Source: a virus
Lineage: Duplodnaviria > Caudoviricetes
DNA: 51,967 nucleotides
Direction: 5' to 3' (one strand)
Virus record (IMG/VR): IMGVR_UViG_3300013117_000053
Location: 1 to 51,967 of that record
Position 1 is the stretch's first letter, and the number at the start of each line of letters is the position of its first letter. The position numbers and the translations under genes were made by a program. The notes below the pieces were generated by a model. That model was not told the DNA's origin and searched no databases. It was given only the letters and a program-made list of their open reading frames with translations. Of the stretch, positions 2,441 to 36,717 are shown piece after piece.

Positions 2441-3943
2441 ATGCCAAGGGTTCTTGAGCTGGATACAGATGTAAAGAGACAAGAACCTGAGAAGGTAACG
2501 CTCCCTGAACGTCAACGCAATAGTCTCCTAAAATTGCTCATTAGTGAGGCACGACAAACTTTTCGAGCTTTTCTCTACTTTTTACATCCTCCCGGCTACA
2601 GTGATTATCTGCTAGGACCGCTACATCTTCACTTAGCTGATATTGTCGATGGCATGCTATGCGGTATGAGGCATGCTTATCAGGCTGTTAGTGTTCCTCC
2701 CCAGCATGGTAAGTCTCAATTGCTGGCCGTACGAGCATCGGCCTTTATCCTAGGACACCAACCGGGAGTGCGAGTTGCCCTCACTGGATTCTCTCATGAT
2801 TTGCTGGTAGAAATGCTGGCAGACATTCGGCGAATTATGGAGACTCCCGAATATCAACTTATCTTTCCCGGTGTAGCTCCTGTCGAGGGATTCAACCGAC
2901 AAGACGAGATGCGGCTTACAAACGGTTCATCCATTATCGCTAAAAGTACAGGACGAAAGCTGACAGGGCGACGAGTTGACTGGCTTGTAATGGATGACGT
3001 ACATGCGGGCCGAGAAGAAGCAGAGAGCAAAACACAACGAGCTAAGATTCAGAGATGGTATTTTGGAGATTGCGTATCTCGTCTGCATCCTACTGCTAAA
3101 GTATTTTTGCTGGGAACGCGTTGGCATCCGGAAGATTTGATTGGGCATCTAACATCCGAAAATTATGTACAGCAATTGCGTACTCATGGACGAGATGACT
3201 TAGTTTATGAAATTACGAATCTACCGGCGATTGCTGAGCAGAACGATATCTTAGGGCGGGAGATAGGAGAGGCGTTATTTCCTGAAGAGAGGCCGATAGA
3301 TTTTCTGGAAGGTGTGCGGCTATCTATACCGCGCTATGAGTGGGATAGTCAGTATCGAGGCAAACCTAGTGCATCCGGGTCCGGACAGGTTAATTTGTTC
3401 AGAGTTAATCGCGGATTGATTATCAATGCCGTGCCTACAAATATTCCTTGGGTGCGGGGCTGGGATCTAGCTCTTACTGAGAAGCAGACTTCTGACTATA
3501 GCTGCGGGGCTTTGTGTGCGTATGATCGGGAGACAAAGGATTTCTTCGTGATAGACATGTTCCGAAGAAAACTAGCATGGGCACGATTGAAACCCCGCCT
3601 TCTTCGGATAAGCCTGCAAGACAAGATCAGATACAACTGTAATAGGATGGGGCTAGAGGCTGTATCGGGATTTAAGATTGGGCTTTCGGAAATACGGGAA
3701 TCTTTACAAGGAGAGGTTAGAGTCGAGGAACGCAATCCTCCACGGGGTGGCAAGCTGATGCGAGCACAGGACTGGCTCAATACGATTGAGGCGGGGAGAT
3801 TTCATCTTGTGCAGGGAGCATGGAACAAAGATTTCCTGGATGAGTTAGAGATGTTTCCAGACGGCGAGCATGATGATCAAATTGATGCTGTGTCGATTGC
3901 GTGGGAATCTCTAGTACGCCGAAAGAAGCTACTATACGCTTGA
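2441..3943 (+). CDS. terL: Terminase large subunit
   Basis: VPPQHGKS Walker A, LTGRRVDWLVMDD Walker B, GTRWHPEDL, RGWDLA nuclease motif, FPDGEHDDQIDA C-terminus. Confidence 0.95.
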   Translation: MPRVLELDTDVKRQEPEKVTLPERQRNSLLKLLISEARQTFRAFLYFLHPPGYSDYLLGPLHLHLADIVDGMLCGMRHAYQAVSVPPQHGKSQLLAVRASAFILGHQPGVRVALTGFSHDLLVEMLADIRRIMETPEYQLIFPGVAPVEGFNRQDEMRLTNGSSIIAKSTGRKLTGRRVDWLVMDDVHAGREEAESKTQRAKIQRWYFGDCVSRLHPTAKVFLLGTRWHPEDLIGHLTSENYVQQLRTHGRDDLVYEITNLPAIAEQNDILGREIGEALFPEERPIDFLEGVRLSIPRYEWDSQYRGKPSASGSGQVNLFRVNRGLIINAVPTNIPWVRGWDLALTEKQTSDYSCGALCAYDRETKDFFVIDMFRRKLAWARLKPRLLRISLQDKIRYNCNRMGLEAVSGFKIGLSEIRESLQGEVRVEERNPPRGGKLMRAQDWLNTIEAGRFHLVQGAWNKDFLDELEMFPDGEHDDQIDAVSIAWESLVRRKKLLYA

Positions 3944-3968
3944 CAAAAGATTGTCAAGGTGATATAGT
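3940..3968 (+). promoter_or_regulatory. Sigma70-type promoter (TTGACAAAAGA class)
   Basis: TTGACA-17 nt-TATAGT; the -35 hexamer is also one arm of the palindrome TTGACA-aaagat-TGTCAA. Confidence 0.85.
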
Positions 3969-3982: not shown

Positions 3983-4131
3983 GAAATGGATTCAGAATGA
4001 CACTCATGGGGGAGGTTAAGTAGGCTGATATGATGCTACTACTTCTTGTTCCCATTCCGGTTAATTTCGGGCGTGTGTCCGAGCCGGATATGAGTATGCC
4101 AAGCCTGCAAGTGTCATTCTGAAAACATTTC
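3983..4131 (+). ncRNA. Candidate structured leader or ncRNA
   Basis: Perfect 14-bp inverted repeat 3991-4004/4110-4123 enclosing smaller hairpins; no convincing + strand ORF for ~270 nt after the promoter. Confidence 0.4.
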
Positions 4132-4240
4132 AAACAGGAAAGACGGCTAATGTTGGTTGCTATAACACAAGAGAAAGCATGCCTTGCGAAGCGGATACCA
4201 GGCAAGATGGTAAAAGCGTAATATGGGTACAGGAGGAGGT

Positions 4241-4447: not shown

Positions 4448-4806
4448 TGAAGCAATGGTTTATACTTCAAATAGCTAGGTTGTTTGAAAAGATTTCAAGA
4501 AAGCGCAGGCTCAAACACAAGGCTAAGTCTATCATTCGGCTGGCTAATATGGGCAGGCCATTCGAGCGGGCGGTGTTTTTGCGAATCGCGGGGGACAAGT
4601 TTGTCTATGGTCTGCCCCCTTCCACAAAGAAGTTGTCTGTAAAGGAGAGGGATAGGCTTTTGCTTGACGGTAAGAAAGCAGAGATAGATTACCGGGAAAC
4701 GCAGATACGGATTCAAAACGTATGGACGCGAGCACGTAAGCGGGCAAAGCGGGAAGGTAAGTTAATGCCTAGCAAGAAAGAGGTTTTGTATGGCATCAAG
4801 GATTAA
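4447..4806 (+). CDS. Hypothetical basic protein
   Basis: Start overlaps the upstream stop; operon-like packing. Confidence 0.55.
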   Translation: MKQWFILQIARLFEKISRKRRLKHKAKSIIRLANMGRPFERAVFLRIAGDKFVYGLPPSTKKLSVKERDRLLLDGKKAEIDYRETQIRIQNVWTRARKRAKREGKLMPSKKEVLYGIKD

Positions 4807-5330: not shown

Positions 5331-5359
5331 TTGACAAAAGATTCTGCTTATGTCATAGT
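5331..5359 (+). promoter_or_regulatory. Sigma70-type promoter (TTGACAAAAGA class)
   Basis: TTGACA-17 nt-CATAGT with extended -10 TG. Confidence 0.75.
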
Positions 5360-6794: not shown

Positions 6795-7169
6795 ATGAAG
6801 TCGCGATCCGCTCATACTGCCGACTGCACGATCTATTCTGCATTGTGTAACGGCAAGTCTGAGGATGGCATTTGTACCTGCGGGTACGGCTGGATGCTGG
6901 CACGGCAGGGCGACTGGTCGGAGATGTATTCGGAGGAGCGAATGATGACTAGCGTTTATGCCTTTCTTCGGCACTGCAATTATTCCAGCCGTTGCCGATA
7001 CAAATACCGGCCGCGACTGCTGTGCCGCCCCGAGTGTCGGCACCATGAGGACTGCGACCACGCAGACCAGCACATGGATACGGAGTATACGCGCCGGGGG
7101 CCGGACCAGGATGGTCGCTGGTATCGTGTGCCGAACGATCAAACTCAGTTTCGGAGCGCAGCGACGTAA
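6795..7169 (+). CDS. Cys/His-rich hypothetical protein ending inside attC-like site 1
   Basis: AAGGAG SD; C-terminus PNDQTQFRSAAT is encoded by the hairpin arm. Confidence 0.55.
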   Translation: MKSRSAHTADCTIYSALCNGKSEDGICTCGYGWMLARQGDWSEMYSEERMMTSVYAFLRHCNYSSRCRYKYRPRLLCRPECRHHEDCDHADQHMDTEYTRRGPDQDGRWYRVPNDQTQFRSAAT

Positions 7170-7190
7170 ATCTAGAGCGCTTTGTTGGGC
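7130..7190 (-). repeat. attC-like site 1
   Basis: GCCGAAC...ctcagtttcg/cgtaaatctagag...GTTGGGC; extra bases on the right arm. Confidence 0.75.
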
Positions 7191-7209
7191 GCTCTGAAAG
7201 GACGGACAG

Positions 7210-7428
7210 ATGAAATGCTATGAGATCACGCCAAGCCCTGATCCTGCATACGACAGCATGATCGTGGAGGCCGATGACACTTGGGGACCAGCCCTTGAGT
7301 TGGTCGAGTCCGCACTAGATGACCAATTCGTGCGTGCTGAGGATGAAGGCAGGCCGTGGACTGACATCACCGTGACGGTGCGGTGTGTGGAGAAAACGCA
7401 AGAGGAAATGGACGCGCTCCATGAGTAG
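7210..7428 (+). CDS. Cassette gene, acidic hypothetical protein
   Basis: AAAGGA SD; bounded by attC-like sites 1 and 2. Confidence 0.7.
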   Translation: MKCYEITPSPDPAYDSMIVEADDTWGPALELVESALDDQFVRAEDEGRPWTDITVTVRCVEKTQEEMDALHE

Positions 7429-7533
7429 CGCCAACGTTGAGCACAGCGGCAAAGAAAGCCGCAGAGAGGACGGTTGATATGAAAAAGAAACGTAAGCGCG
7501 GCTTTCTTTGTACGCTGATGCGTCTGGTTCGGC
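7429..7533 (-). repeat. attC-like site 2
   Basis: CGCCAAC...cagcggcaaagaaagccgc/gcggctttctttgtacgctg...GTTCGGC; loop carries an SD and ATG of a 24-aa ORF (7479-7553). Confidence 0.8.
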
Positions 7534-7563
7534 ATTTTCCGGGCCGGGCGTAGAAAGGAAAGC

Positions 7564-7953
7564 ATGAGAAACAAGCACGAGGAAATGGAAGCCATCGACA
7601 AGGCGCTTGACGAGTTCACCAACGACTGCCGAAGCCCGGACATGGCAAGCCATGATGGCTCACGATGCAGCGAACGCAGAGTTGACTGGCTCGAAACAGC
7701 CGGAGAAAGGCACAGCATGAACCAAGATGGCAAAGCGGCTGTTTCGAGTACGGTCGGACGCCTTGTTCGCCCTTCCTGGGTGAGCATCGAGATGATGGAG
7801 TTTGCCCGTCCGCAAGACGATGACCTATGGCACTGGGCAAACAACCTGAACGCCATGTTGCGCTCTGGCTACTGCAAGAAGTGTGGCCTGACGCCGAATG
7901 GATGCCGCAACGAAGGATGTAGGGCGAACGACAAGCATGAGGGTCAAGCATGA
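7564..7953 (+). CDS. Cassette gene(s): ORF reads through attC-like site 3, with a second start at 7717 inside the hairpin loop
   Basis: SD AAAGGA before 7564; SD-like GGAGAAAGG before ATG 7717; C-terminal CKKC...C...C. Confidence 0.55.
   Translation: MRNKHEEMEAIDKALDEFTNDCRSPDMASHDGSRCSERRVDWLETAGERHSMNQDGKAAVSSTVGRLVRPSWVSIEMMEFARPQDDDLWHWANNLNAMLRSGYCKKCGLTPNGCRNEGCRANDKHEGQA
7669..7771 (-). repeat. attC-like site 3
   Basis: AGCGAAC...ctcgaaacagcc/ggctgtttcgag tacggtc...GTTCGCC. Confidence 0.8.
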
Positions 7954-7998
7954 CAAGCGAAGCGCGGAATGATTGTACCCTCGATGCTCTTGTTGGCC
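7923..7998 (-). repeat. attC-like site 4
   Basis: GGCGAAC...agcatgagggtcaa/ttgTaccctcGatgct...GTTGGCC; extrahelical T and G on the + strand. Confidence 0.85.
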
Positions 7999-8534
7999 TT
8001 CCGGGTCCGTTCTCGGTGATCTACGCTGACCCGCCGTGGTCATACAACGACAAGCGCGGCGGAAAGCCTGCGTGGGGGGCTATGACGTACCCGACCATAC
8101 CGACGCGAGAGATTGCGGCCTTGCCGGTGGCTCAAATCGCAGCGTCCGACTGCGCTCTGTTCATGTGGGCGACCATGCCGCTTCTGCCGGATGCCTTTGC
8201 CGTGCTTGACGGGTGGGGGTTCGACTTTGTGACATGCGCTTTCGTGTGGGTGAAGACAAACAAGAGGGCTGGCACTATCTATTCTGGCATGGGGCACTGG
8301 ACGAACCAAAACGCGGAGCTTTGCCTGTTGGCAAGGCGAGGCAAACCGAAGCGGGTGGCGCGAGACGTGAAGCAGATTGTGCTTGCGCCACGGGGGCGGC
8401 ACAGCGCAAAGCCTGACGAGGTGCGCGACCGGATTGTGCGTCTGATGGGGGACGTTCCAAGGGTTGAACTGTTCGCCCGTGAGCGCGTCCAATGTTGGGA
8501 AGCGTGGGGCAATGAGGTAGAGGCCAACGCCTAG
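7950..8534 (+). CDS. MT-A70 family adenine methyltransferase (cassette-borne)
   Basis: VIYADPPW, LFMWAT, FVWVK, GMGHWT, HSAKP, VELFAR, WGNE motifs. Confidence 0.92.
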   Translation: MTSEARNDCTLDALVGLPGPFSVIYADPPWSYNDKRGGKPAWGAMTYPTIPTREIAALPVAQIAASDCALFMWATMPLLPDAFAVLDGWGFDFVTCAFVWVKTNKRAGTIYSGMGHWTNQNAELCLLARRGKPKRVARDVKQIVLAPRGRHSAKPDEVRDRIVRLMGDVPRVELFARERVQCWEAWGNEVEANA

Positions 8535-8577
8535 GTTCAGCGGTGGCGAAGCTGTACGTTGCAACCTCTGGTTGGCA
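8522..8577 (-). repeat. attC-like site 5
   Basis: GGCCAAC...ggttcagcg/cgttgcaacc...GTTGGCA (56 bp). Confidence 0.8.
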
Positions 8578-8597
8578 GAACAATTAGAAAGGACGAT

Positions 8598-9401
8598 ATG
8601 AAACTAATGCAAGGTGATTGCCTAGAGAGAATGAAAGAGATACCGGATGGAAGTGTGGATATGGTGCTGACCGACCCGCCTTATGGGACGACTGCTTGCA
8701 GGTGGGATAGCATCATTCCGCTTGAGCCTATGTGGGAGCAGTTGAAGAGGGTGACAAAGCCTAACGGGGCTATTGTCATGACGGCAAGCCAGCCGTTCAC
8801 GACCACGCTGATTGCTTCTAATATGAAGATGTTTAAGTATTGTTGGGTTTGGAACAAGAAAAAGGCAGCAAATTTCTTGTTTGGCAATAAAATGCCATTA
8901 AAGATAACAGAGGACGTAGTGGTTTTTTATGGCAAACAACCCACATACAACCCAATAAAACGAGTAAACCCTCTTGGGTCACAAAAACCAGGGCGTAAAG
9001 GCATAGGCAATACCATCAAAGACCACCTTCCGAATTGTCCAGAAAGAAGCAAAGCGGGGAAAAGTTACGAACCAGACAAGTTGTTGCCGGTCTCTATTTT
9101 AGAGATTAGCAAGCCCCATAAGCCAGTCCACCCCACCCAAAAACCAGTAGCCCTAATGGAGTACCTAATCAAGACATACACCAACGAGAATGAAACCGTG
9201 CTGGACTTCACAATGGGCAGTGGCACTACTGGCGTGGCTTGCGCGAACCTCAACCGAGAATTCACCGGAATTGAGAAGGTGGAAGAATACTTCAATATCG
9301 CACAAACGCGGATCGAAGAGGCTATTACTGCCAACACTACTGCTCACGGTCGAGCGGTAGCGAGTACCGTGCAGCAGATTGTTGGAGGTTCCGATGGCTG
9401 A
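8598..9401 (+). CDS. DNA N6-adenine/N4-cytosine methyltransferase, beta class (cassette-borne)
   Basis: GDCLERM, LTDPPYG, HPTQKPVAL, VLDFTMGSGTTG; AAAGGA SD before ATG 8598. Confidence 0.95.
   Translation: MKLMQGDCLERMKEIPDGSVDMVLTDPPYGTTACRWDSIIPLEPMWEQLKRVTKPNGAIVMTASQPFTTTLIASNMKMFKYCWVWNKKKAANFLFGNKMPLKITEDVVVFYGKQPTYNPIKRVNPLGSQKPGRKGIGNTIKDHLPNCPERSKAGKSYEPDKLLPVSILEISKPHKPVHPTQKPVALMEYLIKTYTNENETVLDFTMGSGTTGVACANLNREFTGIEKVEEYFNIAQTRIEEAITANTTAHGRAVASTVQQIVGGSDG
9329..9387 (-). repeat. attC-like site 6
   Basis: TGCCAAC...ctgctcacggt/accgtgcagcag...GTTGGAG; the core site supplies the GGAGG SD of the next gene. Confidence 0.8.
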
Positions 9402-9828
9402 TTTGACAGAAGCAAGATTCGCCGCCAAGTCGGTTGAATACGAGACGCCGCAAGACCTGTTTGACGGGCTGGACGCGGAGTTTGGTTTCACTTGTGACGT
9501 GGCGAGTACGGACGCCAACGCGAAATGTGCGAAGCACTTTACGCTTGCCGACGACGGGCTTGCCCAGCCGTGGGAAGGGGTTTGCTGGTGCAACCCCCCG
9601 TATGGCCGGGAAATGCCGCGATGGATTCGCAAGGCTCGGACAGAGGCGGAAGCAGGGAAAGCAACCACAGTCTTGCTTATTCCGGCCAGGACAAATACCG
9701 GATGGTGGCACGACGAGTGCATGAAGGGTGAGGTGAGGTTCATTCGTGGGCGACCACGGTTCAACGGAGGCAAGCATGGTCTGCCGTTTCCGTTGGCGGT
9801 CGTGGTCTTCCGTACCTCCAACGACTGA
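9394..9828 (+). CDS. Phage-type DNA N6-adenine methyltransferase (Dam family; cassette-borne)
   Basis: YETPQDLF, FTCDVAS, DGLAQPW, WCNPPYG, LIPARTNT, FIRGRPRF. Confidence 0.9.
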   Translation: MADLTEARFAAKSVEYETPQDLFDGLDAEFGFTCDVASTDANAKCAKHFTLADDGLAQPWEGVCWCNPPYGREMPRWIRKARTEAEAGKATTVLLIPARTNTGWWHDECMKGEVRFIRGRPRFNGGKHGLPFPLAVVVFRTSND

Positions 9829-9875
9829 CATCAGCGTTGCGCGAATAGCGCATACGCTGAATGTCTTGGTTGGGT
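9816..9875 (-). repeat. attC-like site 7
   Basis: CTCCAAC...gacatcagcgttgcgc/gcgcatacgctgaatgtc...GTTGGGT. Confidence 0.85.
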
Positions 9876-9904
9876 TTCTCCCGGCCAAGACGGAAAGGAA
9901 CGAG

Positions 9905-10165
9905 ATGGCATACGCTACGATGGATGATTTCAAATACGCAATCGAGACCATGCAACCAAAGCGCGAGGATTGGGACAACACACAAGTATCACGCGGAACG
10001 CCGGAAGATCTTGAGGTTTTCCGAAGAACGCGATGCCTATTTGTCGGTGATCGCATACGCAAAGCAATGAAGTGCGAACACAAATACCGTAGCGCGTTCA
10101 ATCACGAATTGTGCATGACGTGTGGATGCCTTATTGCGGGTGGCCTTAGTAAACCCAACAGGTAA
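9905..10165 (+). CDS. Cassette gene, hypothetical protein with CxH...CxxC
   Basis: AAAGGA SD before ATG 9905; ends KPNR across the final AAC core. Confidence 0.65.
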   Translation: MAYATMDDFKYAIETMQPKREDWDNTQVSRGTPEDLEVFRRTRCLFVGDRIRKAMKCEHKYRSAFNHELCMTCGCLIAGGLSKPNR

Positions 10166-10220: not shown

Positions 10221-11009
10221 ATGGTACGTAAGGTGTATGATCCTGAGATAATGAAAAACGTACTCAGAATCAGTACGCTTAGCGATGAACACATACGATG
10301 GAATACCTACAAGGTACTTAGGCAGAGTACCCCGGCTGAAGTCGAAGGCGGTAAAGTATCGTACTTCGATTATCATAAAATCATGCACGAAATCGGAAAG
10401 CGGTATGGTGTATCGCATCGTCATGTGGCCGGGGTATTCTGTGCTCTTAGTCCGAATGCCGATTGGCTCTCTAATCTTCGTAGTGCCTTAACTGTAGTAC
10501 ATGGTTTTGTAAATAGCTGGGCCGAGCACGAGGTCACAGTCAGCACGTACAAGCATAATCGAGCAAAGGCATGGGAGTTGATGGCGGGAGCCCCCTTCGA
10601 TGAGGTGTATAAGGGACTAAAAGTCCGTGCCTTCTATCGAAATATCTGTGACCCGAATGATCGAGAGCATGTTTGTGTTGACGGGCATATGGCAAACGTG
10701 GCGCGGGGCTACCCTGTGGGTACGCGGTATGCTGAGACCGGGGGTATAAAAGGCTATAGGCGAATCGTTGCGGCGGTTAAAGAGGTTGCCGAGCAAGAAG
10801 GGCTGATACCATCTCAGTTACAGGGGATTTTGTGGGTGACATGGAAACGTATTCACGGCATAATGATTAGTGACCACGCTAGTTTGTTTGATGCGTTGGT
10901 AGAGTGGAAACGTCCGTATATTGATACAAGTAACTGGAGACCGTACCCTAGACGTGTGCAGAAAAATGAGAAGGAGTCGGGATACGTGCAAGAGTGTTTG
11001 TGCTTCTGA
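10221..11009 (+). CDS. Phage protein resembling HhH-GPD-fold DNA glycosylase-like family
   Basis: ALSP..W..N, KVRAFY.NI, VCVDGH, QLQGILWVTWKR motifs; start codon uncertain. Confidence 0.6.
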   Translation: MVRKVYDPEIMKNVLRISTLSDEHIRWNTYKVLRQSTPAEVEGGKVSYFDYHKIMHEIGKRYGVSHRHVAGVFCALSPNADWLSNLRSALTVVHGFVNSWAEHEVTVSTYKHNRAKAWELMAGAPFDEVYKGLKVRAFYRNICDPNDREHVCVDGHMANVARGYPVGTRYAETGGIKGYRRIVAAVKEVAEQEGLIPSQLQGILWVTWKRIHGIMISDHASLFDALVEWKRPYIDTSNWRPYPRRVQKNEKESGYVQECLCF

Positions 11010-11033
11010 AAACTTTTCAAACTAGGAGGGAAG

Positions 11034-12270: not shown

Positions 12271-14748
12271 ATGGCGCGGATCTTAGAAGGTCTTAAGTTT
12301 GCGAGGCGTGTCCCTCAGAATCGAACAGATTTGGTTATGGAGTCCCGTACTCCTGATGCTAAGGAGCGTACGTTCATTGAGCGTACGCTTCGTGTTCCGA
12401 TATACGAGTTCAGTGACATGCGGGCCTATCTTCGGGTAGGTTGTGAGAAGGTATGGGCGTCGTTCAGGGCGTGTCACTTGACAGCATCGGTTCTGCTTTC
12501 CACTAAGTTTAAGGTGCAGGGCAAAGAGCTTGGAGCTGATGTACAGAATCCTGAATTGAATCGTTTGCTTAGTACGCCTAACCCATTCGATTCATGGGCA
12601 GAGTTGCTGTATCTGTGGGTTTACCATATGAAGCTGACAGGGCGGGCGTACTGGCTTAAAGATGAAATGGATTACAAAGGTAGACCGAAATACCTTTATC
12701 CATTGATGCCTCAGTATGTAGCGCCCATACCTCACCCTACCGAAAAAATTAGTGGGTACATATATCGGGTTAATGGGCAGGAGCAACACTTTGAACGGGA
12801 TGAGATAATTCATTTTCGTCGTCCTCATCCTATGAAACTGCACGGGGCATTAGGCGATGTAGCAGCGTCTCAACCACTTTATCGAGAGTACATAGCACGA
12901 AACACACTTGAGGAGAAGTTTCTTGCTAATGGGGCAATGCCGTCTGGCATTCTTACTAAGAAAGAGGCTGAAGAGGATGAAGAGGAGTGGGCTAAGCTGA
13001 AGAAGTGGTGGAAGTCTGAGTACGAGGGGGAGCGTAACGTAGGTAAGACGGCTTTTCTGAATGGCGAATGGGCATACACGAAGCTGGGACTGACACATTC
13101 TGAGATGCAATCCATTGAGAACGAGAAATGGAGCATCGAGCAGATATTTACCAATCATGGTGTGCCGCTTTCGATGGCGGGGATCAAAGAAGCTGCAAAC
13201 TACGCTTGCCTTCCTGCTGGGGAGCTAGTCACAACGCAAAATGGGGTGCCTGTTCCTATCGAGCAATTAGAGGCTGGAGATGTTATTGTCCAGTTTGATC
13301 CTGCGATGGGTAGTGTTGAGGTTCCTGTTGAAGCGATTATCGAACAGGGTGACGCTGAGGTTTTGGAGCTTGTCACGGATTCACGTACTCTTCGAGCATC
13401 AAATAACCATCCAGTTTTATGTGTGAATCGTACAGCGGGAACAGGGCGTAACGGGAAACGAGTTGAGGTAGCTCTGGAATACAAATACGTTGAGGATCTT
13501 TGTGTAGGCGATATAGTGGTATGCTTAGACGAGCTTATGTGTAAAAGGAATAAGTGTATTCCTATTGAGAACCGTGATCCTATTGATGCTGCATACGCAC
13601 TTGGACAGTATGTAGGAGACGGCAGCGGTGCTTCCCTTACACGTATACGAATTGGGGGGTTTACTATTGCTACACATGAAAAAGAGGGTTACCAGTCAGT
13701 AGTAGCTGATGCGTTTAAGGCATTTGGGTTTGTGCCGTCAGTTAATCCTACTAGCATTAGGTTTCAGTCTGCGGATTTTGCGCGTGATATGGTTAGTGCA
13801 GGTTTTGGCGGTAGGTCAGGTGAGAAGCGTATTCCTGAATGGGTCTTTTCACTTCCAGTTGAACAACAACTACATTTTGCTGCGGGATTGATTGACGCGG
13901 ATGGTTGTGTTGCAGAGCGTGGTAGTATTACGTTTGCTGTAGCAAATAAAGAGTTGGCTAGTGACTTTAAGCATTTGCTTATGTGTCTCGGAGTTCCAAC
14001 CAGTAACTTGCGTCCATGTGAGCAGTTCACGAACTATGGGGATGTTGTAAGTTGGCGTTTTACTGCTGGAATTGTGAGAGAAAACAAGCGGCTACCTTTG
14101 CGACACCCCAAAAAAGCACAACGGCTTGCAGTAGCGGAAAGTAAAGGTGATAAGGCAGGTAAGGGGATTCCGGGTGCGTATCGTTTACCTTCTGATCTTG
14201 TGTTGCCCGAGGGTTATGGCGTACAGAAGGTTAGAAGTATACGTTCTCTTGGTAAGATGCCAGTCTATGATTTAGCAACTACTGGGTACCACAATTTTCT
14301 TGCTTCTGGCATTGTCACACATAATACGGCGCGGCAAGACGAGATTAACTTTCGTAAGTACGAAATTGTTCCCCTTCTGGATTTGTTGGTAGGCAAGCTG
14401 AATGGCGAAGAGACAGCGGTGGGTAAGCCTGTATTTGTGCGGGCTTTTTCTTCTATATGGGAATTGGCATACGAGTTATCAGGCTTGATTGATGTTGAGC
14501 AGGTAGTGAAGGATTACGGTCCTCTTGTGGATAGGGGTGCGCTAACGCCGAATCAGTTACGGGAATTATGCGGGTTGGAGCGTGACGAGGGTAATCCGTT
14601 GCTTGATCAGTATTTTGTGAATAGAAACCGTGTACCTATTGAGTTTGCGGGATTCTCAACTCCGACAGATGCGGAGCGTGAAAGAGATCGTAGAGAGAAT
14701 GAATCTATTCTTCCCGAAGGGGAGGAAGATGATGAAGTAGAGGAATGA
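12271..14748 (+). CDS. HK97-family portal protein with intein
   Basis: LLSTPNPF, GRAYW, LYPLMP, DEIIHFR, FLANGAMPSGIL, GVPLSMAG, LTPNQLRE. Confidence 0.93.
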   Translation: MARILEGLKFARRVPQNRTDLVMESRTPDAKERTFIERTLRVPIYEFSDMRAYLRVGCEKVWASFRACHLTASVLLSTKFKVQGKELGADVQNPELNRLLSTPNPFDSWAELLYLWVYHMKLTGRAYWLKDEMDYKGRPKYLYPLMPQYVAPIPHPTEKISGYIYRVNGQEQHFERDEIIHFRRPHPMKLHGALGDVAASQPLYREYIARNTLEEKFLANGAMPSGILTKKEAEEDEEEWAKLKKWWKSEYEGERNVGKTAFLNGEWAYTKLGLTHSEMQSIENEKWSIEQIFTNHGVPLSMAGIKEAANYACLPAGELVTTQNGVPVPIEQLEAGDVIVQFDPAMGSVEVPVEAIIEQGDAEVLELVTDSRTLRASNNHPVLCVNRTAGTGRNGKRVEVALEYKYVEDLCVGDIVVCLDELMCKRNKCIPIENRDPIDAAYALGQYVGDGSGASLTRIRIGGFTIATHEKEGYQSVVADAFKAFGFVPSVNPTSIRFQSADFARDMVSAGFGGRSGEKRIPEWVFSLPVEQQLHFAAGLIDADGCVAERGSITFAVANKELASDFKHLLMCLGVPTSNLRPCEQFTNYGDVVSWRFTAGIVRENKRLPLRHPKKAQRLAVAESKGDKAGKGIPGAYRLPSDLVLPEGYGVQKVRSIRSLGKMPVYDLATTGYHNFLASGIVTHNTARQDEINFRKYEIVPLLDLLVGKLNGEETAVGKPVFVRAFSSIWELAYELSGLIDVEQVVKDYGPLVDRGALTPNQLRELCGLERDEGNPLLDQYFVNRNRVPIEFAGFSTPTDAERERDRRENESILPEGEEDDEVEE
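13207..14325 (+). mobile_element. Intein (373 aa) with in-frame LAGLIDADG homing endonuclease
   Basis: NYA|CLPAGELV, ASNNHP block B, LGQYVGDG and FAAGLIDADG, VYDL...HNFLASGIVTHN|T. Confidence 0.95.
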
Positions 14749-15539: not shown

Positions 15540-17128
15540 TTCGTCGTAGGCAGTTACCCCGGCACCACCTATCTCCCGGCAGGGCTGTGCAGCTTATTAA
15601 GAGTAGCCATGTACCGGAGCGGGGATGGAGTGCGCAGACTTTTCGGGGGGAGAACGGTAGGCGACTGATTGATGATTTTGTAATAGCTCATCGAGTTGTG
15701 GTGGCGAAGGGCATTCGCAGGCTGGCACCCCAGATCAAGATCTACTTCAAGTACGTTCTACGGCATACACTCGACAAGTTTACTGAGCGGGCATTGCGTG
15801 TGTATGGTATCCCTCTCAAATCCGGTAGGAAGGATGTACTACAGTCAGTTGTTCTTTCTCCCGGCATGCATGAGGATCTGTGGGCACAGGCGTTAGCAGA
15901 CGTTCTACAGGAAGCAGGGCTTGACTTCTCTATGAATCTAGCTGGAGCTATTCAGGGGGGTGTGGACGCTGCATATGCTACGACAGCTTCTCTTATGGGT
16001 GTGGTAGCACGTCCGGGGACGCAAGGAGTTCTTAATTATCGGGCACAAATGTTGGGGCAGCGTATTACCCGAATATCCGATACTACCAGAAGCATGTTTC
16101 AGCAAATCCTAGGTAATGGTATACAAGACAATCTTACGCCTGTGGAGATGGCAGAGGTATTGCGTTCTCGTTTTCCTCAGATGGCATCATGGCGAACGGC
16201 GATGATTGCCCGTACAGAAATGGGAATGGCAGCAGATGCGGGGCGCATACAGGGGTTGCAGGAATCAGAAGTAGTGACTCATGTATCGGTGATTGGGTGT
16301 GAGGCACGTGAGGCGCATAGCCCTTCGTATCGTGGGGAGTCTACGTGTAATATCAGTGATGTACCTATTGAGGATGCGGAGACGCTGGACTTTCATCCTA
16401 ACCATACGGGATGCATTGTGCCAAGTCGTATGCGTGATGCTTTTGGTGAGGAAGTCGAGTTGACGGATGAGCAAATGGGAGATGCTCCCGCGCTGTTTGA
16501 TGAGGGGGCACCGATAGAGCGAGCGTATACGTCACCGGAAGAGGCAGCACGCGATCTTGATTTTGTGGGGTGGGGCATGCGTTCGGTAGATGGAGTTGCC
16601 GCAACTGAGTATGCTGCGCTGGGTGTTTTGGCGCAAGTGGACAGTCCGTATAGTTATTCCCATATGAACCACTATTTACGAGCTGGGGCATTGGCGTTAG
16701 CGGAGCAAACGATGGAAGAGGTAACGCAAAGGCTTGCGTTGATTGATGCTGCGATAGCGCGGGCAAGTGCCCCCTTTCAATTGCGGTTATATCTTGGTAG
16801 TACTTTGGAGGAGTTCGGTATAGTACAAACTACTCCAGCGGCGTTACGAAATCTGGTAGGTAGGCAATTTACTGATCCGGGGTATATGCTTACGTCTGTG
16901 TCTTCGCAGGTTGTTACCGGGAATATGATTCCTAGTGGGTTTCTTTTGACAGTAAGAATACCTGTAGGGCATGGGGCTATGCCGTTGTTTGTTGGAGGTG
17001 CTGTACGTGATTCGATAGCGCCTATACGTGGAGAGGGGGAGGTACTGCTTCCTCGTGGTACGTCTATCATAGTTCGTGCCGTAAATACGTATGGGCCGGT
17101 TACTGAGATTATGGCAGAAGCGGTCTGA
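15509..17128 (+). CDS. MuF/SPP1 gp7-like minor head protein fused to a VIP2-type ADP-ribosyltransferase-like domain
   Basis: ITRISDTTR, IARTE, HPNH..CI (MuF); Y.HMNHYLR, FTDPGYMLTS, EGEVLLPRGT (ART). Confidence 0.85.
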   Translation: MPYRPPKATIVRRRQLPRHHLSPGRAVQLIKSSHVPERGWSAQTFRGENGRRLIDDFVIAHRVVVAKGIRRLAPQIKIYFKYVLRHTLDKFTERALRVYGIPLKSGRKDVLQSVVLSPGMHEDLWAQALADVLQEAGLDFSMNLAGAIQGGVDAAYATTASLMGVVARPGTQGVLNYRAQMLGQRITRISDTTRSMFQQILGNGIQDNLTPVEMAEVLRSRFPQMASWRTAMIARTEMGMAADAGRIQGLQESEVVTHVSVIGCEAREAHSPSYRGESTCNISDVPIEDAETLDFHPNHTGCIVPSRMRDAFGEEVELTDEQMGDAPALFDEGAPIERAYTSPEEAARDLDFVGWGMRSVDGVAATEYAALGVLAQVDSPYSYSHMNHYLRAGALALAEQTMEEVTQRLALIDAAIARASAPFQLRLYLGSTLEEFGIVQTTPAALRNLVGRQFTDPGYMLTSVSSQVVTGNMIPSGFLLTVRIPVGHGAMPLFVGGAVRDSIAPIRGEGEVLLPRGTSIIVRAVNTYGPVTEIMAEAV

Positions 17129-17232
17129 AAACTTTTCAAATGAAAGAAAGCCCTTGTGCCTATTATGCGCTATATGGTACAACGGAGAGGTAATGCAGAT
17201 GCGCGTGGTAGTGACGTAACAGGAGAAATCGA

Positions 17233-31647: not shown

Positions 31648-32727
31648 GTGGGCGAGTTTCACCTAAGTGTAGAGTTCACTGAAATTTGTGGTGTAGATGT
31701 GCGGGGGACACGAGAGGAGCATGTCATATGTTGCTGTTCGTCTTCTGTTTCATCGTCCTCAGTGTCTTCCTCTGTAAGTAGCCGTAGTGCTTTGTCTGAG
31801 TCGGAAGTGTCTCAATCGGTAGCCGAATCGGGGGGTAGCGAGAGTGGGAGTGTCAGCAGTCGAAGTAGTAGGAGTAGTGTTAGTAGCGAATCCTCTAGTG
31901 TATCTAGTAGTATTTCGTCTAGTAGCGAGGAGAGGATTTACCCTAACAAGTATTACTGTGTTCAAGAAGATCAATGGGACTTGACCGTCGGGGGGTGTCC
32001 TCCGGGTGTGCCAGATAATACTGTGTATAAGGTATTGCAGGGCAAAGATATCGTAGACATTTGCACGCAAGGTCCATTATTTTACTATGAGCATACAGTA
32101 CTGTCAGGGCCGTTCGATACTGCCGAAGAGGCACAACCTTGCCCCCCTTCTTTTCAGGCTGAAGAGGTTATGCTTCTTCATCCTCCTGAGTTTCCGGGGA
32201 TACCACACGATGAGTATGTGCGGCTTGCTACACTAGATGGTAAGAATGTTACCTTGCAGGGTGCTGGGAAGGCGTATGCTGGAGAGGGTTATCGAGTAGC
32301 GTGGAATGCAGATCGGTATCATTGGGAGTTATGGGATAGTGTAGGTTTTGTAGGTGAGTCTATTACGCATACTGCAAGCGATGCGGGTGGGTTGTATCGA
32401 ACAACACGGGGTGCTCGTACGCGGGGGTATAGGCAGTTTCATACGCTAAGACACGAGAAGGGATGGGAGGGGGATTTTCAGCTTGCACCGAAAGGTAGCA
32501 GACGATACCTTGGCAATCGTCAGCTAAAGAACAGGATGCGTCTTGAGTTTGCTGATCTTCGAGAGATGGACAAGTTTCTCCGTAACCTGTCGGGGTTAAT
32601 GTCTGTTGGGAAGAAGCCAGCACGGCTAAGAGTTAAACGCCGCAATCGCTCAGTACGCTATGATCGGGGGGAGAGCATCCTTGATGAGCCTAACGCCGGT
32701 ATTCATTCAGAATCCGAAAACAGCTAG
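31648..32727 (+). CDS. Cys/Ser-rich putative tail fibre or adhesin protein
   Basis: ICCC followed by a ~60-residue Ser-rich tract; same frame as the upstream gene. Confidence 0.6.
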   Translation: MGEFHLSVEFTEICGVDVRGTREEHVICCCSSSVSSSSVSSSVSSRSALSESEVSQSVAESGGSESGSVSSRSSRSSVSSESSSVSSSISSSSEERIYPNKYYCVQEDQWDLTVGGCPPGVPDNTVYKVLQGKDIVDICTQGPLFYYEHTVLSGPFDTAEEAQPCPPSFQAEEVMLLHPPEFPGIPHDEYVRLATLDGKNVTLQGAGKAYAGEGYRVAWNADRYHWELWDSVGFVGESITHTASDAGGLYRTTRGARTRGYRQFHTLRHEKGWEGDFQLAPKGSRRYLGNRQLKNRMRLEFADLREMDKFLRNLSGLMSVGKKPARLRVKRRNRSVRYDRGESILDEPNAGIHSESENS

Positions 32728-33289
32728 TACTTCTATACGCAAAGCACTACCCGGAGTAAAGACGGCATCTTTGCGGAGACACCGTACGGTACACCTACCC
32801 CTCAAACATTGGCACATTCAACGCCAAATCGAGCATGCTGAACGTCCGTGGGTATTTGGGGTAGTACGTCATCCTTTCGATAGGTTCATTTCAGCATGGG
32901 CTTATTTCAAGAAGCCACGTAAACGTACGCTAACGGATTTCTATGTACTGGAGGCTTGTTTACAGGATGGAACTATAAATGACTTTATACGCACTGTAAG
33001 TTTTGAAAAGATTTCAAAGTGGGTGCCCCACTTTAGACGACAGCAGTGGTTTTTCACGAATAGGCAGGGCAAGAGAGATGCTGTTGATCAGCTACTACGT
33101 TTTGAGAATATCGAGCATGAGTTTTCAACGTTGTGCTCGAAGCTGAGTATCCCTCCTTTTGAGTTGCCAAAGATGCGGACGACTAAGCATCCAAGGTGGC
33201 AGGATGTGTTAGGGCAGTCATCTATTAGGAAGTTATTGCGTTTCTACAAACCGGATTTTGAGAGGTACGGGTATGAGTGGGAAGCTTGA
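32684..33289 (+). CDS. Sulfotransferase (Sulfotransfer_2-like)
   Basis: FIQNPKTASTSI (5'-PSB), VVRHPFDRFISAW (3'-PB), HFRRQ, LRFENI, YKPDFERYGY; start uncertain (32660 or 32684). Confidence 0.88.
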   Translation: MSLTPVFIQNPKTASTSIRKALPGVKTASLRRHRTVHLPLKHWHIQRQIEHAERPWVFGVVRHPFDRFISAWAYFKKPRKRTLTDFYVLEACLQDGTINDFIRTVSFEKISKWVPHFRRQQWFFTNRQGKRDAVDQLLRFENIEHEFSTLCSKLSIPPFELPKMRTTKHPRWQDVLGQSSIRKLLRFYKPDFERYGYEWEA

Positions 33290-34025
33290 TCCAATACTAG
33301 TATGGCCTATCAAACCAAAAGGGGGTAGTCGCTGGGATAATAATGAATTGCGCTTCTCTTTGCGATCAGTGCAGAAGCATTGGCATACGTATAACGATAA
33401 GCCGCCGAAAGTGTTTATCCTCACTACAGTAAATGTTCCGTGGTTGAACGAAGAAGAGGTAACGCTTGTACCTGTCCGGGGATACGCAGAGGCAATTATT
33501 ACTACGTGGGAGCTAGCGCGAGAGCATACGCAATCCCACTATTATGTGTGGATGAATGATGATATTTGTTTTCTGCGAGACACTGTAGCTGAGGATCTGA
33601 TGACTGCATTGCATTTGGGCAAAATGCCTCGTCCGAAGGAGGGCGAAAAGCGAGTAAAAAATGGTTGGCGTAGGAAGCTGCATGGGGTTCGCAATAGGCT
33701 ATGGGGGATGGGGATTGAGCCACTAGACTTTTCCACGCATGATCCGTACTTGTTCAATGCAGACAGGATGGAGATAGTTGCTGGATTATTCGGTCTCCAG
33801 TACAAGACTCCGCTAGAGACTGCATACTATAATTTCTGGCGAGAGCAGATACCCCATCGGCGGGCTAAGGGTGATAGAATTGTACGTCATCGAAAAGGGC
33901 GGGGTATCCCCCTTACGTTGAATGGTGAGAGATTTTTGAATTACTCCGAGCAGGGGTGTGATGCCACAATGAAGGGTTATCTGTCTGGGATGTTTCCGTA
34001 CAAATCTCGCTACGAGAAAGGTTAG
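33273..34025 (+). CDS. Stealth-family hexose-1-phosphate transferase-like protein
   Basis: NNELRFSLRSVQKH, VPWL, WMNDDICFL, THDP motifs. Confidence 0.75.
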   Translation: MSGKLDPILVWPIKPKGGSRWDNNELRFSLRSVQKHWHTYNDKPPKVFILTTVNVPWLNEEEVTLVPVRGYAEAIITTWELAREHTQSHYYVWMNDDICFLRDTVAEDLMTALHLGKMPRPKEGEKRVKNGWRRKLHGVRNRLWGMGIEPLDFSTHDPYLFNADRMEIVAGLFGLQYKTPLETAYYNFWREQIPHRRAKGDRIVRHRKGRGIPLTLNGERFLNYSEQGCDATMKGYLSGMFPYKSRYEKG

Positions 34026-34030
34026 GGATA

Positions 34031-34480
34031 ATGACTGATACTAATTATCAGGAGCAGATGGAAAAGGACCGTCAGGAGGCCGCTGCGTGGTCTCAGGGGC
34101 ATTGGAAAGAGCTACAGCAATTGTGGGTAGATCTGCATATTTATGCTGCGCGGTTTTCGCTTTCTCCAAGTACAGAGGATGTAGATGATGCAGAGTCTTG
34201 GCTACAACAATGGTATGTCAAGTTCCCCCCGGATTGTCCGTGCATAGCGGAGTGGACCCGGATCTTAGAGGTGTGTCCGCCCCCTATAGCTAGCGGGGCA
34301 TTAGAGTTTTTTTGGTGGACTGTAGCAGCACATGATAGGGTAAACGTCTATCTGGGTAAGCGGGTATGGGCAAACAAGAGCAAAACACACCCTTTGTTAC
34401 AGCAGTTATTGGAAACCGATGAAGGGAGTCGTGCAGAGTATAAAAGGAGAATGTCTGCTCCTGCTATCAATAAGTGTTGA
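34031..34480 (+). CDS. Erv1/Alr-like FAD sulfhydryl oxidase (CxC variant)
   Basis: LWVDLH...DCPC...WWTVAAHDRVNVYLGK matches the Erv pattern W..LH/PCxxC/W...HN.VN..LGK. Confidence 0.75.
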   Translation: MTDTNYQEQMEKDRQEAAAWSQGHWKELQQLWVDLHIYAARFSLSPSTEDVDDAESWLQQWYVKFPPDCPCIAEWTRILEVCPPPIASGALEFFWWTVAAHDRVNVYLGKRVWANKSKTHPLLQQLLETDEGSRAEYKRRMSAPAINKC

Positions 34481-34487
34481 GGTGTAG

Positions 34488-35357
34488 GTGAAAGCTGTAC
34501 TGTATTTAATGCCTAGACAGGCAAAACCAGCATGGAATACTCATGTGTCTAGGGCGTGGCCTGCGTTCAAGAGAGGTATGCAACGGCACGGAGTTCAGGT
34601 GTATACTTACGTAGAGGACAGTAACCGTGCTACCCCTCCTTATGGTGATGTTGTAGTTACGATGGGGTGGAGAAAGACAAGGAATCCAGTGGTATGTGGT
34701 GCTAGAAATCTTGTACTGGACTCTGGGTATGTAGGTGCGCGGAAGGGAGCGTGTGTGTCTTTTGGGTGGGATGGGTTGAGTGGTATGGCACAGGGGATAC
34801 CGCCAATACCAGGTAGGGGTAAATTATTGCTAGGGAGAGATATGGTTCCATGGCGCGGTCGGGAGGTGCGTAATGTCCTACTAGCGGGGCAGGTGCCGGG
34901 AGATTCTGCGTTGGATGGAGTAGGGCGGTATGCTACGTGGCTTAGAGTGGTAGGGGGGGAGTTAAGAGTTGCGGGGTATCATGTATTATATCGGCCACAC
35001 CCACTTGCTCATGGTAAAATTAGACGGTCTAGAGGTAAGCGCAGAGATAGTGTGCGTAGGTTACTTGGGTTATCTGTGTCAGGTAAGCCTTTGGTGGATG
35101 ATTTGAACTGGGCAGATATGGTGGTATCGTGGAGTAGTAATACGCTTGTGGATGCAGCCATACACGGTATTCCTGTTTGTCCCTTTTCGCGTATAGCTAT
35201 GGTATGGGGGATACGTACTCCGTGGGGTATGTTTGCTACCCCTAATTTATGCGATAGGGATGGGTGGCTGGATTACGTGTGTTCTAGGCAATGGAACATA
35301 CCAGAGTTATTGTCGGGGGAGGCGTGGGATTACATACGGCAAGGAGTATACATGTGA
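34488..35357 (+). CDS. GT-B glycosyltransferase resembling capsule synthesis (KpsS/KpsC-like) family
   Basis: LAGQVPGDSA, YRPHP, WSSNTLVDAAIHGIPV, QWNIPEL.SG. Confidence 0.75.
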   Translation: MKAVLYLMPRQAKPAWNTHVSRAWPAFKRGMQRHGVQVYTYVEDSNRATPPYGDVVVTMGWRKTRNPVVCGARNLVLDSGYVGARKGACVSFGWDGLSGMAQGIPPIPGRGKLLLGRDMVPWRGREVRNVLLAGQVPGDSALDGVGRYATWLRVVGGELRVAGYHVLYRPHPLAHGKIRRSRGKRRDSVRRLLGLSVSGKPLVDDLNWADMVVSWSSNTLVDAAIHGIPVCPFSRIAMVWGIRTPWGMFATPNLCDRDGWLDYVCSRQWNIPELLSGEAWDYIRQGVYM

Positions 35358-36061
35358 GTAAGAGGGTAATATATACCTCAGCAGTGTCTAGGCACATGCC
35401 GTGGTGGGGTCGTTGGGTAAAAAAACGATTTGAGCGATACGCTACTAGGGTAGGCGCTACTTTGGTTAATTTACCATCATGTCGGCATCGTGGTAGATTA
35501 GGGAAGTACTGGGTTAAGTTCGATGCTTTTAAGAGATCGCTGGTAGTAGCAGAGCAGTATCCTGATGCACAGTTTTTATGGTTAGATGCTGATGTGATTT
35601 TGCGACCTATGAAAGTTCCAAATTTATTTGAGTTGGGGGAGGGATTATGGTCGTGTGTTTCGGATAATGGTATGAGTTATCGTCCACGGTCTTATAGGCA
35701 GAATCATTATATGTTTGGTGTTCCATTGATGGCTCCCCATCCGACTAATGCTATTATTCTGTGGGGCAAGAAAGAGGCAAGAGCTATACTACGAGAATAC
35801 GCGAACATACCCTCAGTGTTGCGAATAGAGCAGCGACTGACAGACGAGGGAGGGTTGTGCGTGTTAGCGTATAAAGCTGAGATACCTATACAGTGGGTGC
35901 CTGCGGGCTGGCATAGGATGACTAGTAAGTTTCATAGGAGTACTCAGTTTTTCCACGCGGCGGGTGGTGGCAAGATGAAGAAATGCCGTAGGGCATTGCG
36001 TATTATTCGACGGGTGAGACAGAATGAGAGGCGACGAGCGAAAATAAGAGGTAAGAGGTAA
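35354..36061 (+). CDS. GT-A glycosyltransferase (GT34/GT8-like)
   Basis: YATRVGA, WVK, LWLDADVIL DxD motif, TDEG, FFHAAG; GTG start near 35354 inferred. Confidence 0.75.
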   Translation: MSKRVIYTSAVSRHMPWWGRWVKKRFERYATRVGATLVNLPSCRHRGRLGKYWVKFDAFKRSLVVAEQYPDAQFLWLDADVILRPMKVPNLFELGEGLWSCVSDNGMSYRPRSYRQNHYMFGVPLMAPHPTNAIILWGKKEARAILREYANIPSVLRIEQRLTDEGGLCVLAYKAEIPIQWVPAGWHRMTSKFHRSTQFFHAAGGGKMKKCRRALRIIRRVRQNERRRAKIRGKR

Positions 36062-36063
36062 TT

Positions 36064-36717
36064 ATGTCTGCGCGTGTGTTGTATACTTCTGCGGGACCAG
36101 AGCTACGGTACTGGAAGATTAGTAAACCATACATTGAGCATTACGCTAATAAGGTAGGGGCAAAACTAGTAGTTATCCCAAAGACACGTAGAGTACAGCG
36201 TATGCGGGTATTGTTTGATGCTATGGAGAAATCATTGTTGTGTGAGAGCGATACTGTGTGCGCATGGGTAGATGCGGATATTATTGTACGTAGAACAGCC
36301 CCTGACATATTCGGCACACCCGACAAGTTGCTATTTTGTTCCCCAGAACCGGCTAAGCGAGTACACCCTAGATGGATTAGGGAGTATAAATCTTTTGGCG
36401 TACTCCATCCCCGTCCTTATGTTATTACAGCGATTGTACGTTGGTCTACAAGATATGCGAGACGCATCGTGTCATGGTTAGAGGTTAATGAGGGTAGCCT
36501 GCCTGACAGTATGGATGATCAATCCATATGTACGCTTGCTTGTTGGCAAATGGATATTGCGGTTGCTTATTTTCCATCTACATGGCATAAGATGCATTGG
36601 CGAGTAAAGCGAGGAACGCAATTTTTGCATGCCGCGTCAAGGAACAAAGTCAAAAACTTATGTAAGCTAGCGAAATTGGCAGACCGTAGAGATAAGATGG
36701 TATTGGGGAAGTTGTGA
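36064..36717 (+). CDS. GT-A glycosyltransferase, paralog of the upstream gene
   Basis: YANKVGA, WVDADIIV, DDQS, FLHAAS. Confidence 0.75.
   Translation: MSARVLYTSAGPELRYWKISKPYIEHYANKVGAKLVVIPKTRRVQRMRVLFDAMEKSLLCESDTVCAWVDADIIVRRTAPDIFGTPDKLLFCSPEPAKRVHPRWIREYKSFGVLHPRPYVITAIVRWSTRYARRIVSWLEVNEGSLPDSMDDQSICTLACWQMDIAVAYFPSTWHKMHWRVKRGTQFLHAASRNKVKNLCKLAKLADRRDKMVLGKL

Follow-up and report, generated by a model that had tools for sequence, protein, structure and literature searches.

The 51,967-base viral record IMGVR_UViG_3300013117_000053 (hereafter the window, i.e., the complete linear record, with an estimated completeness of 60%) carries at positions 7130-10165 an array of seven attC-type hairpins followed by one bare core. 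This is probably an integron-type phage array built back to front, likely worked by an integron integrase (IntI) of the host and held together by a shared asparagine reading frame that is likely functional. In such an array, the attC hairpin would precede its gene, with the folding strand being the coding strand; the host integrase would likely cut at AA↓C; the shared Asn frame would likely bring every gene without a stop to an end only a few codons on; and the ribosome would likely be passed to the next start at roughly every second junction. Judged by its terminase, portal, capsid, DNA polymerase A, and DnaB helicase genes (profile search), the window is that of a tailed phage, and the array cargo includes MT-A70, N6/N4, and Dam methyltransferases (Pfam). 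Comparison across viral contigs indicates that the finding is real and general beyond the window.

attC identity and inverted polarity

On the + strand, the sites consist of (i) AAC, a 5-6-nt spacer, and a 7-nt box, (ii) a loop, and (iii) a bulged T, 2 nt, 4 nt, a second bulge, 3 nt, a 5-nt spacer, and GTT. The second extrahelical base is G, C, or A, and the spacing equals that of the aadA7 bottom strand given in the supplement of PMC9892861. All seven sites, 56-105 nt long with their cores, have the inverted AAC/GTT cores closing an imperfect hairpin (about 57-141 bp) that characterize attC, while L boxes, unpaired spacers, and extrahelical bases on one arm define the bottom strand. This folding (bottom) strand is the coding strand in the window. 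In control arrays called by the same scanner, the folding strand lies opposite to the main strand of the genes at 9/9 Vibrio, 5/5 Shewanella, and 3/3 TJE1 sites; a fourth control record, MW202573, yielded no usable site from the scanner. The window genes, located on the bottom strand behind their hairpins, do not conform to the classical gene cassette, i.e., a top-strand gene with its own attC at the 3′ end. With seven attC sites in 2.7 kb and no integrase in the window, the array classifies as a cluster of attC sites lacking an integrase (CALIN), as assigned by our own site calls rather than by IntegronFinder.

The same polarity is found in other phages. Three pattern scans of viral contigs provided 120 loci, and a strict scanner applied to 200 viral loci (80 of which are MT-A70 loci) identified 75 distinct sites, 72 of them analysable, on 35 contigs. 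In a similar setting, the scanner gave 3 matches in 1.67 Mb of block-shuffled DNA versus 126 raw matches. Upstream of the 72 sites, 246 candidate frames contain 13 PHROG matches (mapped by hand), 12 of which are on the folding strand; one of these 12 frames stops short of its site, and 10 of the 11 others are in the AAC frame. An open reading frame (ORF) led by a Shine-Dalgarno sequence (SD) is missing from the folding strand at only 5/72 viral sites versus 47/56 bacterial sites.

IntI crosses over at G↓TT, which corresponds to AA↓C on the folding strand. Because the folding strand is here the coding strand, the crossover is predicted to lie at the 3′ end of each gene and the mobile unit to comprise hairpin, gene, and AA. 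The ends of the array agree with this unit, since a full hairpin comes first and a bare AAC last. With regard to the attI site and Pc promoter of a complete integron, the window has a bare core at 10157 and, at the opposite end of the array, predicted promoters.

Unit shuffling and exchange of C-terminal tails

Comparison of related arrays documents both the unit borders and their rearrangement. The loci L122 and L111, which belong to two near-identical phages, have 1065 nt in common at 99.9% identity up to an AAC and diverge after it. Among six further common segments, three are 100% identical with an AAC at both ends, one begins at an AAC and runs off the locus, and two end at an AAC but begin at GTT or within a hairpin. 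The order of units is A,B,C,D,E,F in one locus and D,B,F,C,E,A in the other. Similarly, the window unit 7673-7927 recurs in L191 at about 90% identity, with both borders at AAC, other neighbours, and another tail. Both pairs contain gene cassette arrays in the sense of mobile units bounded at the crossover triplet, with a minority of borders at GTT or within hairpins. An automatic tally found 15 common segments, 6 of which are repeats unrelated to the arrays; the remaining nine start at AAC in five cases and at GTT in three (one intragenic) and end at AAC in six (one intragenic), over a background of 19% for starts and 24% for ends.

An earlier note on this DNA had proposed that six cassette ORFs take their stop from the next element and that shuffling swaps short protein termini. 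Both proposals are borne out, as the breakpoints fall at AAC and the stop is thus supplied by the next mobile unit. One identical gene carries two different tails in L122/L111 (LRA-N-AALKSADEGGVS and LRA-N-VPGESALPGERKA), and genes of the window are retailed in L191 (window CRA-N-DKHEGQA, L191 CRA-N-GKDDTPK) and L097 (MT-A70 ends VEA-N-A and VEA-N-AQISGG..., respectively). The accompanying expectation that homologues of these methyltransferases end in Asn plus a variable tail holds for the cassette-borne MT-A70 in L097 only; it fails for the C-termini displayed at 9/22 Dam and 24/80 MT-A70 loci (2 of the latter 24 mis-started); these homologues are not cassettes.

The MT-A70 cassettes of L097 (reverse strand, 3026-3673) and of the window (7950-8534) have hairpins with 86% nucleotide identity, the same last 22 nt before AAC, and strongly diverged bodies, which suggests body replacement within the cassette frame. 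Ahead of the first hairpin of L097, an unrelated phage, positions 2985-3002 (reverse strand) equal window positions 9315-9332, i.e., 18 nt from the 3′ end of the N6/N4 methyltransferase gene; a supposed full copy of this gene in L097 came down to these 18 nt only. The L097 array sits between two diverged copies of one gene end, which we take to be RuvC-like. The array of L117/L190 (a single contig) contains three copies of a cassette body; one of them comes with its hairpin at 100% identity, another has no hairpin. A search for an empty-site relative of the window found none.

A common reading frame at the core

Six genes of the window lack a stop before the core and read its AAC as an in-frame Asn, as the earlier note had described: VP-N-DQTQFRSAAT at 7134, RA-N-DKHEGQA at 7927, EA-N-A at 8526, TA-N-TTAHGRAVASTVQQIVGGSDG at 9333, TS-N-D at 9820, and KP-N-R at 10157, each followed by a stop. 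Three of these six frames are independently fixed by Pfam matches, and that of the gene starting at 7717 is supported by 10 synonymous codons among the 12 that differ from L191. Two of the eight window junctions depart from the rule, as one gene has its own TAG 7 nt ahead of site 2 and the ORF from 7564 crosses site 3 out of frame.

Random codon phase at the cores of a larger site set would have contradicted a fixed register; the phase is in fact strongly biased. At the 72 viral sites, the upstream SD-led gene enters in the AAC frame in 46 cases and in another frame in 4, has its own stop in 17 (11 of them exactly ahead of the 7-bp core), and is absent in 5. Among genes that read through, 46/50 therefore use the AAC frame (p 5e-18 against 1/3), compared with 251/445 for control C[CG]AAC words outside sites (92% versus 56%; Fisher 2e-7). 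The bias persists at sites not selected by the search pattern (21/25) and with one site per contig (28/29; p 1.4e-6 against the control rate of 0.564). A first count of 59/65 was discarded, having scored some own-stop genes as read-through. The hairpins match this usage: a stop within 32 codons is present in the AAC frame of 70/72 viral hairpins, versus 42 and 47 in the other frames, and in 51/53 hairpin families, versus 34 and 35. Bacterial sites of the same motif have such a near stop in the AAC frame in only 27/56 cases.

The rule may extend to resident genes. In L155, a DNA helicase gene (PHROG match; + strand, ending at 2707) enters the first AAC of the array in frame, so that core phage genes, too, appear to take their stops from hairpins.

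A stop codon directly ahead of the 7-bp core occurs at 20/72 viral sites, 3/56 bacterial sites, and 42/655 controls. At the 20 viral sites, it ends the gene in 11 and is out of frame in 9; the out-of-frame stops are perhaps a relic of an older cassette design. In the window, such a stop lies at 7426, 7 nt before AAC, with other-frame examples at 7920 and 10150.

Hairpin designs and translational coupling

The hairpins follow three designs. Those of design (i) are long and carry SD and ATG in the loop, the latter usually overlapping the AAC-frame stop as ATGA (window sites 2-4). In design (ii), the hairpin is short, with an AAC-GTT distance that is a multiple of 3, and is translated over its whole length as far as a stop at the following start (site 6). 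In design (iii), the hairpin is short with the stop in its stem, and the next start, 40-100 nt further on, is not directly coupled (sites 1, 5, and 7, with 43, 66, and 79 nt from stop to next ATG, respectively). Genes that carry their own stop just ahead of the core are in the minority. SD and ATG lie inside the hairpin at 26/72 viral sites versus 1/56 bacterial sites.

The next start can be called at 59 of the 72 sites. The AAC-frame stop lies within 8 nt of an SD-led ATG at 27 of them, versus 7 and 6 for the other frames, and direct ATGA contact occurs 22 times in the AAC frame versus 5 and 4. By design, stop-start contact is found at 19/25 loop-start, 8/12 read-through, and 0/22 stem-stop sites, and a gap of 39-102 nt separates the AAC-frame stop from the next start at 22 of the 59 sites. 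Where the present neighbour ignores the AAC frame, contact occurs at 7/21 sites, compared with 20/38 where the frame is used (p 0.18); such roughly equal frequencies are what contact built into the module would give. The claim that any cassette couples translation to whichever neighbour follows is thus overstated: it describes the 27 contact sites but neither the long gaps nor the 17 genes with their own stops. We infer that the contacts couple translation where they occur.

Within the window, the details given for the loop-start sites are confirmed. The loop ATGs at 7479, 7717, and 7950 read the GTT at 7527, 7765, and 7992 as Val (48, 48, and 42 nt apart), sites 3 and 4 show ATGA overlaps between start and AAC-frame TGA (stops at 7718 and 7951), and the stop of site 2 ends 1 nt short of ATG 7479. 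At site 6, the core GGAGG lies 5 nt ahead of the Dam ATG at 9394 as the predicted SD. A register for GTT as such is only partly upheld: 19/25 loop starts read it as Val, while starts located behind GTT spread 9/8/17 over the three frames. Such a register is not required because the crossover is AA↓C, and its relevance would be confined to the less frequent events in which a gene body changes its hairpin (L126/L163).

Recombinase and host

The register is workable for a reason absent from the earlier note, namely that the sites are inverted attC with the crossover at AAC, so that each hairpin travels with the gene behind it. The simplest candidate for the enzyme is a host IntI acting in trans. 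The motif also occurs in bacterial genomes. At the bacterial locus L260, an IntI above the family cut-off stands beside sites of the same motif in the canonical cassette layout. Of 78 bacterial loci listed with the motif, 33 are titled Verrucomicrobiota, Kiritimatiellae, or Lentisphaerae (hand count), titles that we presume to form one group, and the host is probably of Verrucomicrobiota type. Two word-based, low-sensitivity scans of viral contigs found no phage-borne IntI. Two candidate proteins were rejected as IntI: the recombinase next to the array in L104 reaches 29 bits where 265 would be needed, and the L259 protein, at 214, also falls short of the cut-off.

Weighing the explanations

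Several observations tell against a back-to-front array moved by a host IntI. No tyrosine recombinase (PF00589) was found in the 52-kb window, itself rated 60% complete, which hence lacks the adjacent intI of a complete integron. Only one of 14 other array-bearing contigs, three of which are rated 94-100% complete, has a tyrosine recombinase, and that one is not an IntI. Some unit borders lie at GTT or inside a hairpin rather than at AAC (L126/L163, one L117 duplicate, and two L122/L111 units), and about half of the junctions have no direct stop-start contact. The sample represents one attC family, picked by C[CG]AAC patterns that were derived from the window, and background AAC words in these phages are in frame in 56% of cases anyway. 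In TJE1, which has canonical polarity, 2/3 genes read the core AAC as Asn though it is not the crossover; therefore, not every such case reflects a crossover. As for polarity, a Markov model on a looser site set assigned 50/88 upstream flanks to the AAC frame and 18 to the two other frames but 20 to the opposite strand. A six-frame longest-ORF test favoured the folding strand at only 31/72 upstream and 28/72 downstream viral flanks; the opposite strand won at 41/72 viral and 35/48 bacterial upstream flanks. Being undiscriminating in GC-rich regions of short genes, this test supports neither polarity, and the PHROG matches and SD-led ORFs were used instead.

Some of these points would be accounted for if the cassettes were inverted and IntI-mobile but the register were a by-product, with capture at a nearby AAC that is mostly in frame, ATGA contacts that merely follow compact phage operon style, and no selection for coupling. 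The in-frame rate of control words, the long gaps at 22/59 sites, the own stops of 17/72 genes, and the two Asn readings at a non-crossover AAC in TJE1 are all in line with this idea. It is nevertheless unlikely, given the rise from 56% to 92% in frame, the confinement of near stops to the AAC frame in 51/53 hairpin families but not in bacterial sites of the same motif, and the persistence of ATGA contact where the current neighbour makes no use of the frame. Selection is the presumed cause of the register.

Movement without IntI, by homologous or microhomology recombination between like hairpins through phage recombinases, appears very unlikely. The lack of an IntI in the window and the 14 array phages speaks for it, as do the borders at GTT or mid-hairpin and the L097 cassette, which retains the site 4 hairpin of the window and the 22 nt leading up to AAC, with a far diverged MT-A70 body in between. 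Most borders, however, coincide with the AAC triplet itself, beyond which the sequences differ; the extrahelical bases and spacers of an IntI substrate are kept across 53 hairpin families; and IntI1 recombined phage attC sites in PMC9892861. It is scarcely credible that the hairpins are RNA signals for processing or attenuation with an incidental likeness to attC. They do lie in mRNA and overlap starts and stops, but Rfam returned no match (one chance match at E 0.63), the attC spacing and bulges are present, cassettes next to a bacterial IntI are bordered by this motif as well, and DNA units are reordered at their AAC. The inverted, IntI-mobile array with a functional frame thus remains the preferred explanation.

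Cassette origin and implications

To our knowledge, the first making of cassettes is not settled in the integron field. A bolder extension of the preferred explanation, which we advance only tentatively, is that phages infecting hosts of Verrucomicrobiota type use the host integrase to operate a cassette pool of their own under a shared frame standard and that this layout mints new cassettes. A 5′ attC header (hairpin, SD, and often ATG) would be joined to a phage gene, and an attG-type excision would then reach to an in-frame AAC at the natural end of that gene, any other header providing the stop. Consistent with this route, the AAC of the window Dam and MT-A70 genes lies at the position of the natural C-terminus of their relatives: a non-cassette Dam relative (80% identity) has the C-terminus VVFRSKV in place of VVFRTS-N in the window, and 7/24 MT-A70 relatives with displayed C-termini end WG(N/D/K)E(V/I) where the window has WGNEV-EA-N. 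Headers also appear portable, as the site 7 hairpin with its leader up to the SD precedes an unrelated gene in L153. A resident phage gene, the L155 helicase, ends at the first AAC of its array. Combined with the published excision by IntI at positions outside the point of insertion, the natural-end AAC and the portable headers suggest such a minting route.

The design inverts the textbook cassette and requires of unrelated mobile units a common codon register, comparable to a cloning standard arisen in nature. Through a host enzyme, phages that lack an integrase would reorder counter-defence genes such as orphan methyltransferases. Phage cassettes entering a host integron would lie antisense to its promoter, which would keep the two pools apart. 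Crossovers at natural gene ends offer a handle on the first making of cassettes, for which the phage layout, if true, would be a natural route, and near-identical phage pairs with reordered units are ready test material.

Relation to known systems

Phage attC arrays and translation through attC are already published. Qi et al. (2023, PMC9892861) describe phage-borne CALINs in TJE1, PH101, and P12002L, in which IntI1 recombined 5/6 tested phage attC sites with a preference for the bottom strand. As in the window, these are attC arrays in phage genomes with no integrase and a cargo rich in orphan DNA methyltransferases. TJE1, however, has canonical polarity, whereas in the window the folding strand is coding, the hairpin leads the gene and holds its SD or start, and the crossover lies in the last codons of the previous gene. 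The text and first supplement part of PMC9892861 contain no analysis of polarity relative to genes or of codon phase; its figures may show site orientation. In our TJE1 locus (L201, 77-1071), the R″ AAC is an Asn codon both for orf1 and for orf2, a methyltransferase gene, and each of the two ends within its own attC.

Classical arrays (class 1; Vibrio, Shewanella; L260) have in common with the window R/L boxes, unpaired spacers, two extrahelical bases, a variable loop, and a single crossover. In these arrays, a gene is followed by its own attC, and its stop is located at or ahead of the TAAC in that site (8/8 listed Vibrio cassette ends), so that no frame rule is required between cassettes, whereas the stop-less genes of the window depend on the next cassette. 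Related in translational terms are ORF-11 of attI1 and the short attC-borne ORFs (Hanau-Bercot 2002 and Jacquier 2009, as reviewed in PMC8876359), whose frame likewise crosses the crossover and takes its stop from the incoming cassette, with termination-reinitiation through the attC hairpin. These are leader peptides at attI1 or occasional mini-ORFs, while in the window cargo proteins cross the crossover, in one frame at every array position. The attG sites (Loot et al., bioRxiv 10.1101/2022.09.11.507474), simple non-att genome sites at which IntI inserts cassettes and from which it can excise outside the insertion point, are compatible with an array bordered by a hairpin on one side and by a bare core on the other. 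They were shown in E. coli and V. cholerae chromosomes, whereas the bare core of the window, a putative site of this kind, lies in phage DNA. A literature search covering few subscription journals and including passages of PMC11511950, PMC8946536, and PMC5371416 brought up no report of phage arrays with inverted polarity or of a codon register where the crossover lies.

Sites and genes of the array

All features in this section are on the + strand, and z denotes folding relative to shuffled sequence. Five hairpins fold strongly (z -3.4 to -7.5), site 5 weakly, and site 1 not at all. The left-flank ORF (6795..7169; 124 aa, no family) reads the AAC of site 1 as Asn, stops within the hairpin, and, with GC rising to 0.575 at this point, may itself be an old cassette. 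Site 1 (7130..7190; AAC 7134, GTT 7184; z 0.54) is a degenerate attC with bottom-strand geometry that is 84% alike to one site in L153. It is followed by a cassette gene of 72 aa with no assigned function (7210..7428), whose own TAG directly precedes the 7-bp core of site 2. Site 2 (7429..7533; AAC 7433, GTT 7527; z -4.28), identified by eye and not called by the scanner, has a loop SD, ATG 7479, and the AAC-frame TGA at 7475; its loop ORF (7479-7553), which reads GTT as Val, is only 24 aa long. A decayed cassette body follows (7564..7672; z -1.33), in which the ORF starting at ATG 7564 runs across site 3 in a frame other than that of AAC and is fused to the gene at 7717; the AAC at 7621, which is in frame, is possibly a leftover core. 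A 23-nt direct repeat (83%; 7393-7415 and 7570-7592) encodes KTQEEMDA and KHEEMEA in these neighbouring cassette genes.

Site 3 (7669..7771; AAC 7673, GTT 7765; z -3.37) carries a loop SD and ATG 7717 in ATGA overlap with the AAC-frame stop. The gene starting there (7717..7953; 78 aa, no assigned function) has two weak matches only as relatives in metagenomes. In site 4 (7923..7998; AAC 7927, GTT 7992; z -3.91), the extrahelical T and G match the aadA7 bottom strand, and ATG 7950 overlaps the AAC-frame TGA. The MT-A70 family adenine methyltransferase (7950..8534; PF05063, E 2e-28) has its N-terminus encoded in site 4 and its stop in site 5 (8522..8577; AAC 8526, GTT 8571; z -1.56), where the AAC-frame TAG is at 8532 and the next ATG at 8598. 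The N6/N4 DNA methyltransferase gene (8598..9401; PF01555, E 1.5e-32) traverses the whole of site 6 (9329..9387; AAC 9333 and GTT 9381, 48 nt apart; z -3.96), and its stop overlaps the start of the phage Dam-family adenine methyltransferase (9394..9828; PF05869, E 2.5e-25). Site 7 (9816..9875; AAC 9820, GTT 9869) has the lowest z of -7.46. The last cassette gene (9905..10165; 86 aa, no family) found no relatives in a metagenome search. The bare core without a hairpin (10153..10159; AAC 10157; z -0.67) forms the right border of the array and is a putative insertion point like attG or attI.

Other features of the window

The array sits in a run of small + strand genes downstream of two predicted sigma-70 promoters at 5331..5359 (+) and 3940-3968. 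The former matches the consensus at 10/12 positions, which is a prediction and not evidence of function, and no + strand terminator was called between it and the array. Across about 6800 to 10000, GC rises and G skew falls. Two more DNA methyltransferases lie outside the array (C5 at 1269-2273 and N6/N4 at 49379-50518), bringing the window total to five. The portal protein gene (12271-14748) contains an intein with a LAGLIDADG domain (Pfam), and the DNA polymerase A gene (45810-49547) has, by eye, an apparent second intein-like insert. A 21-nt partly palindromic repeat recurs in the left third of the window at 671-691, 4116-4136, 11003-11023, and 17122-17142, with two copies being identical and inverted copies near 2271-2294 and 4481-4497; it is possibly an operator. 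Behind the tail genes, an apparent cluster of glycosyl-, sulfo-, and methyltransferase genes (by eye) occupies 32660-37409.

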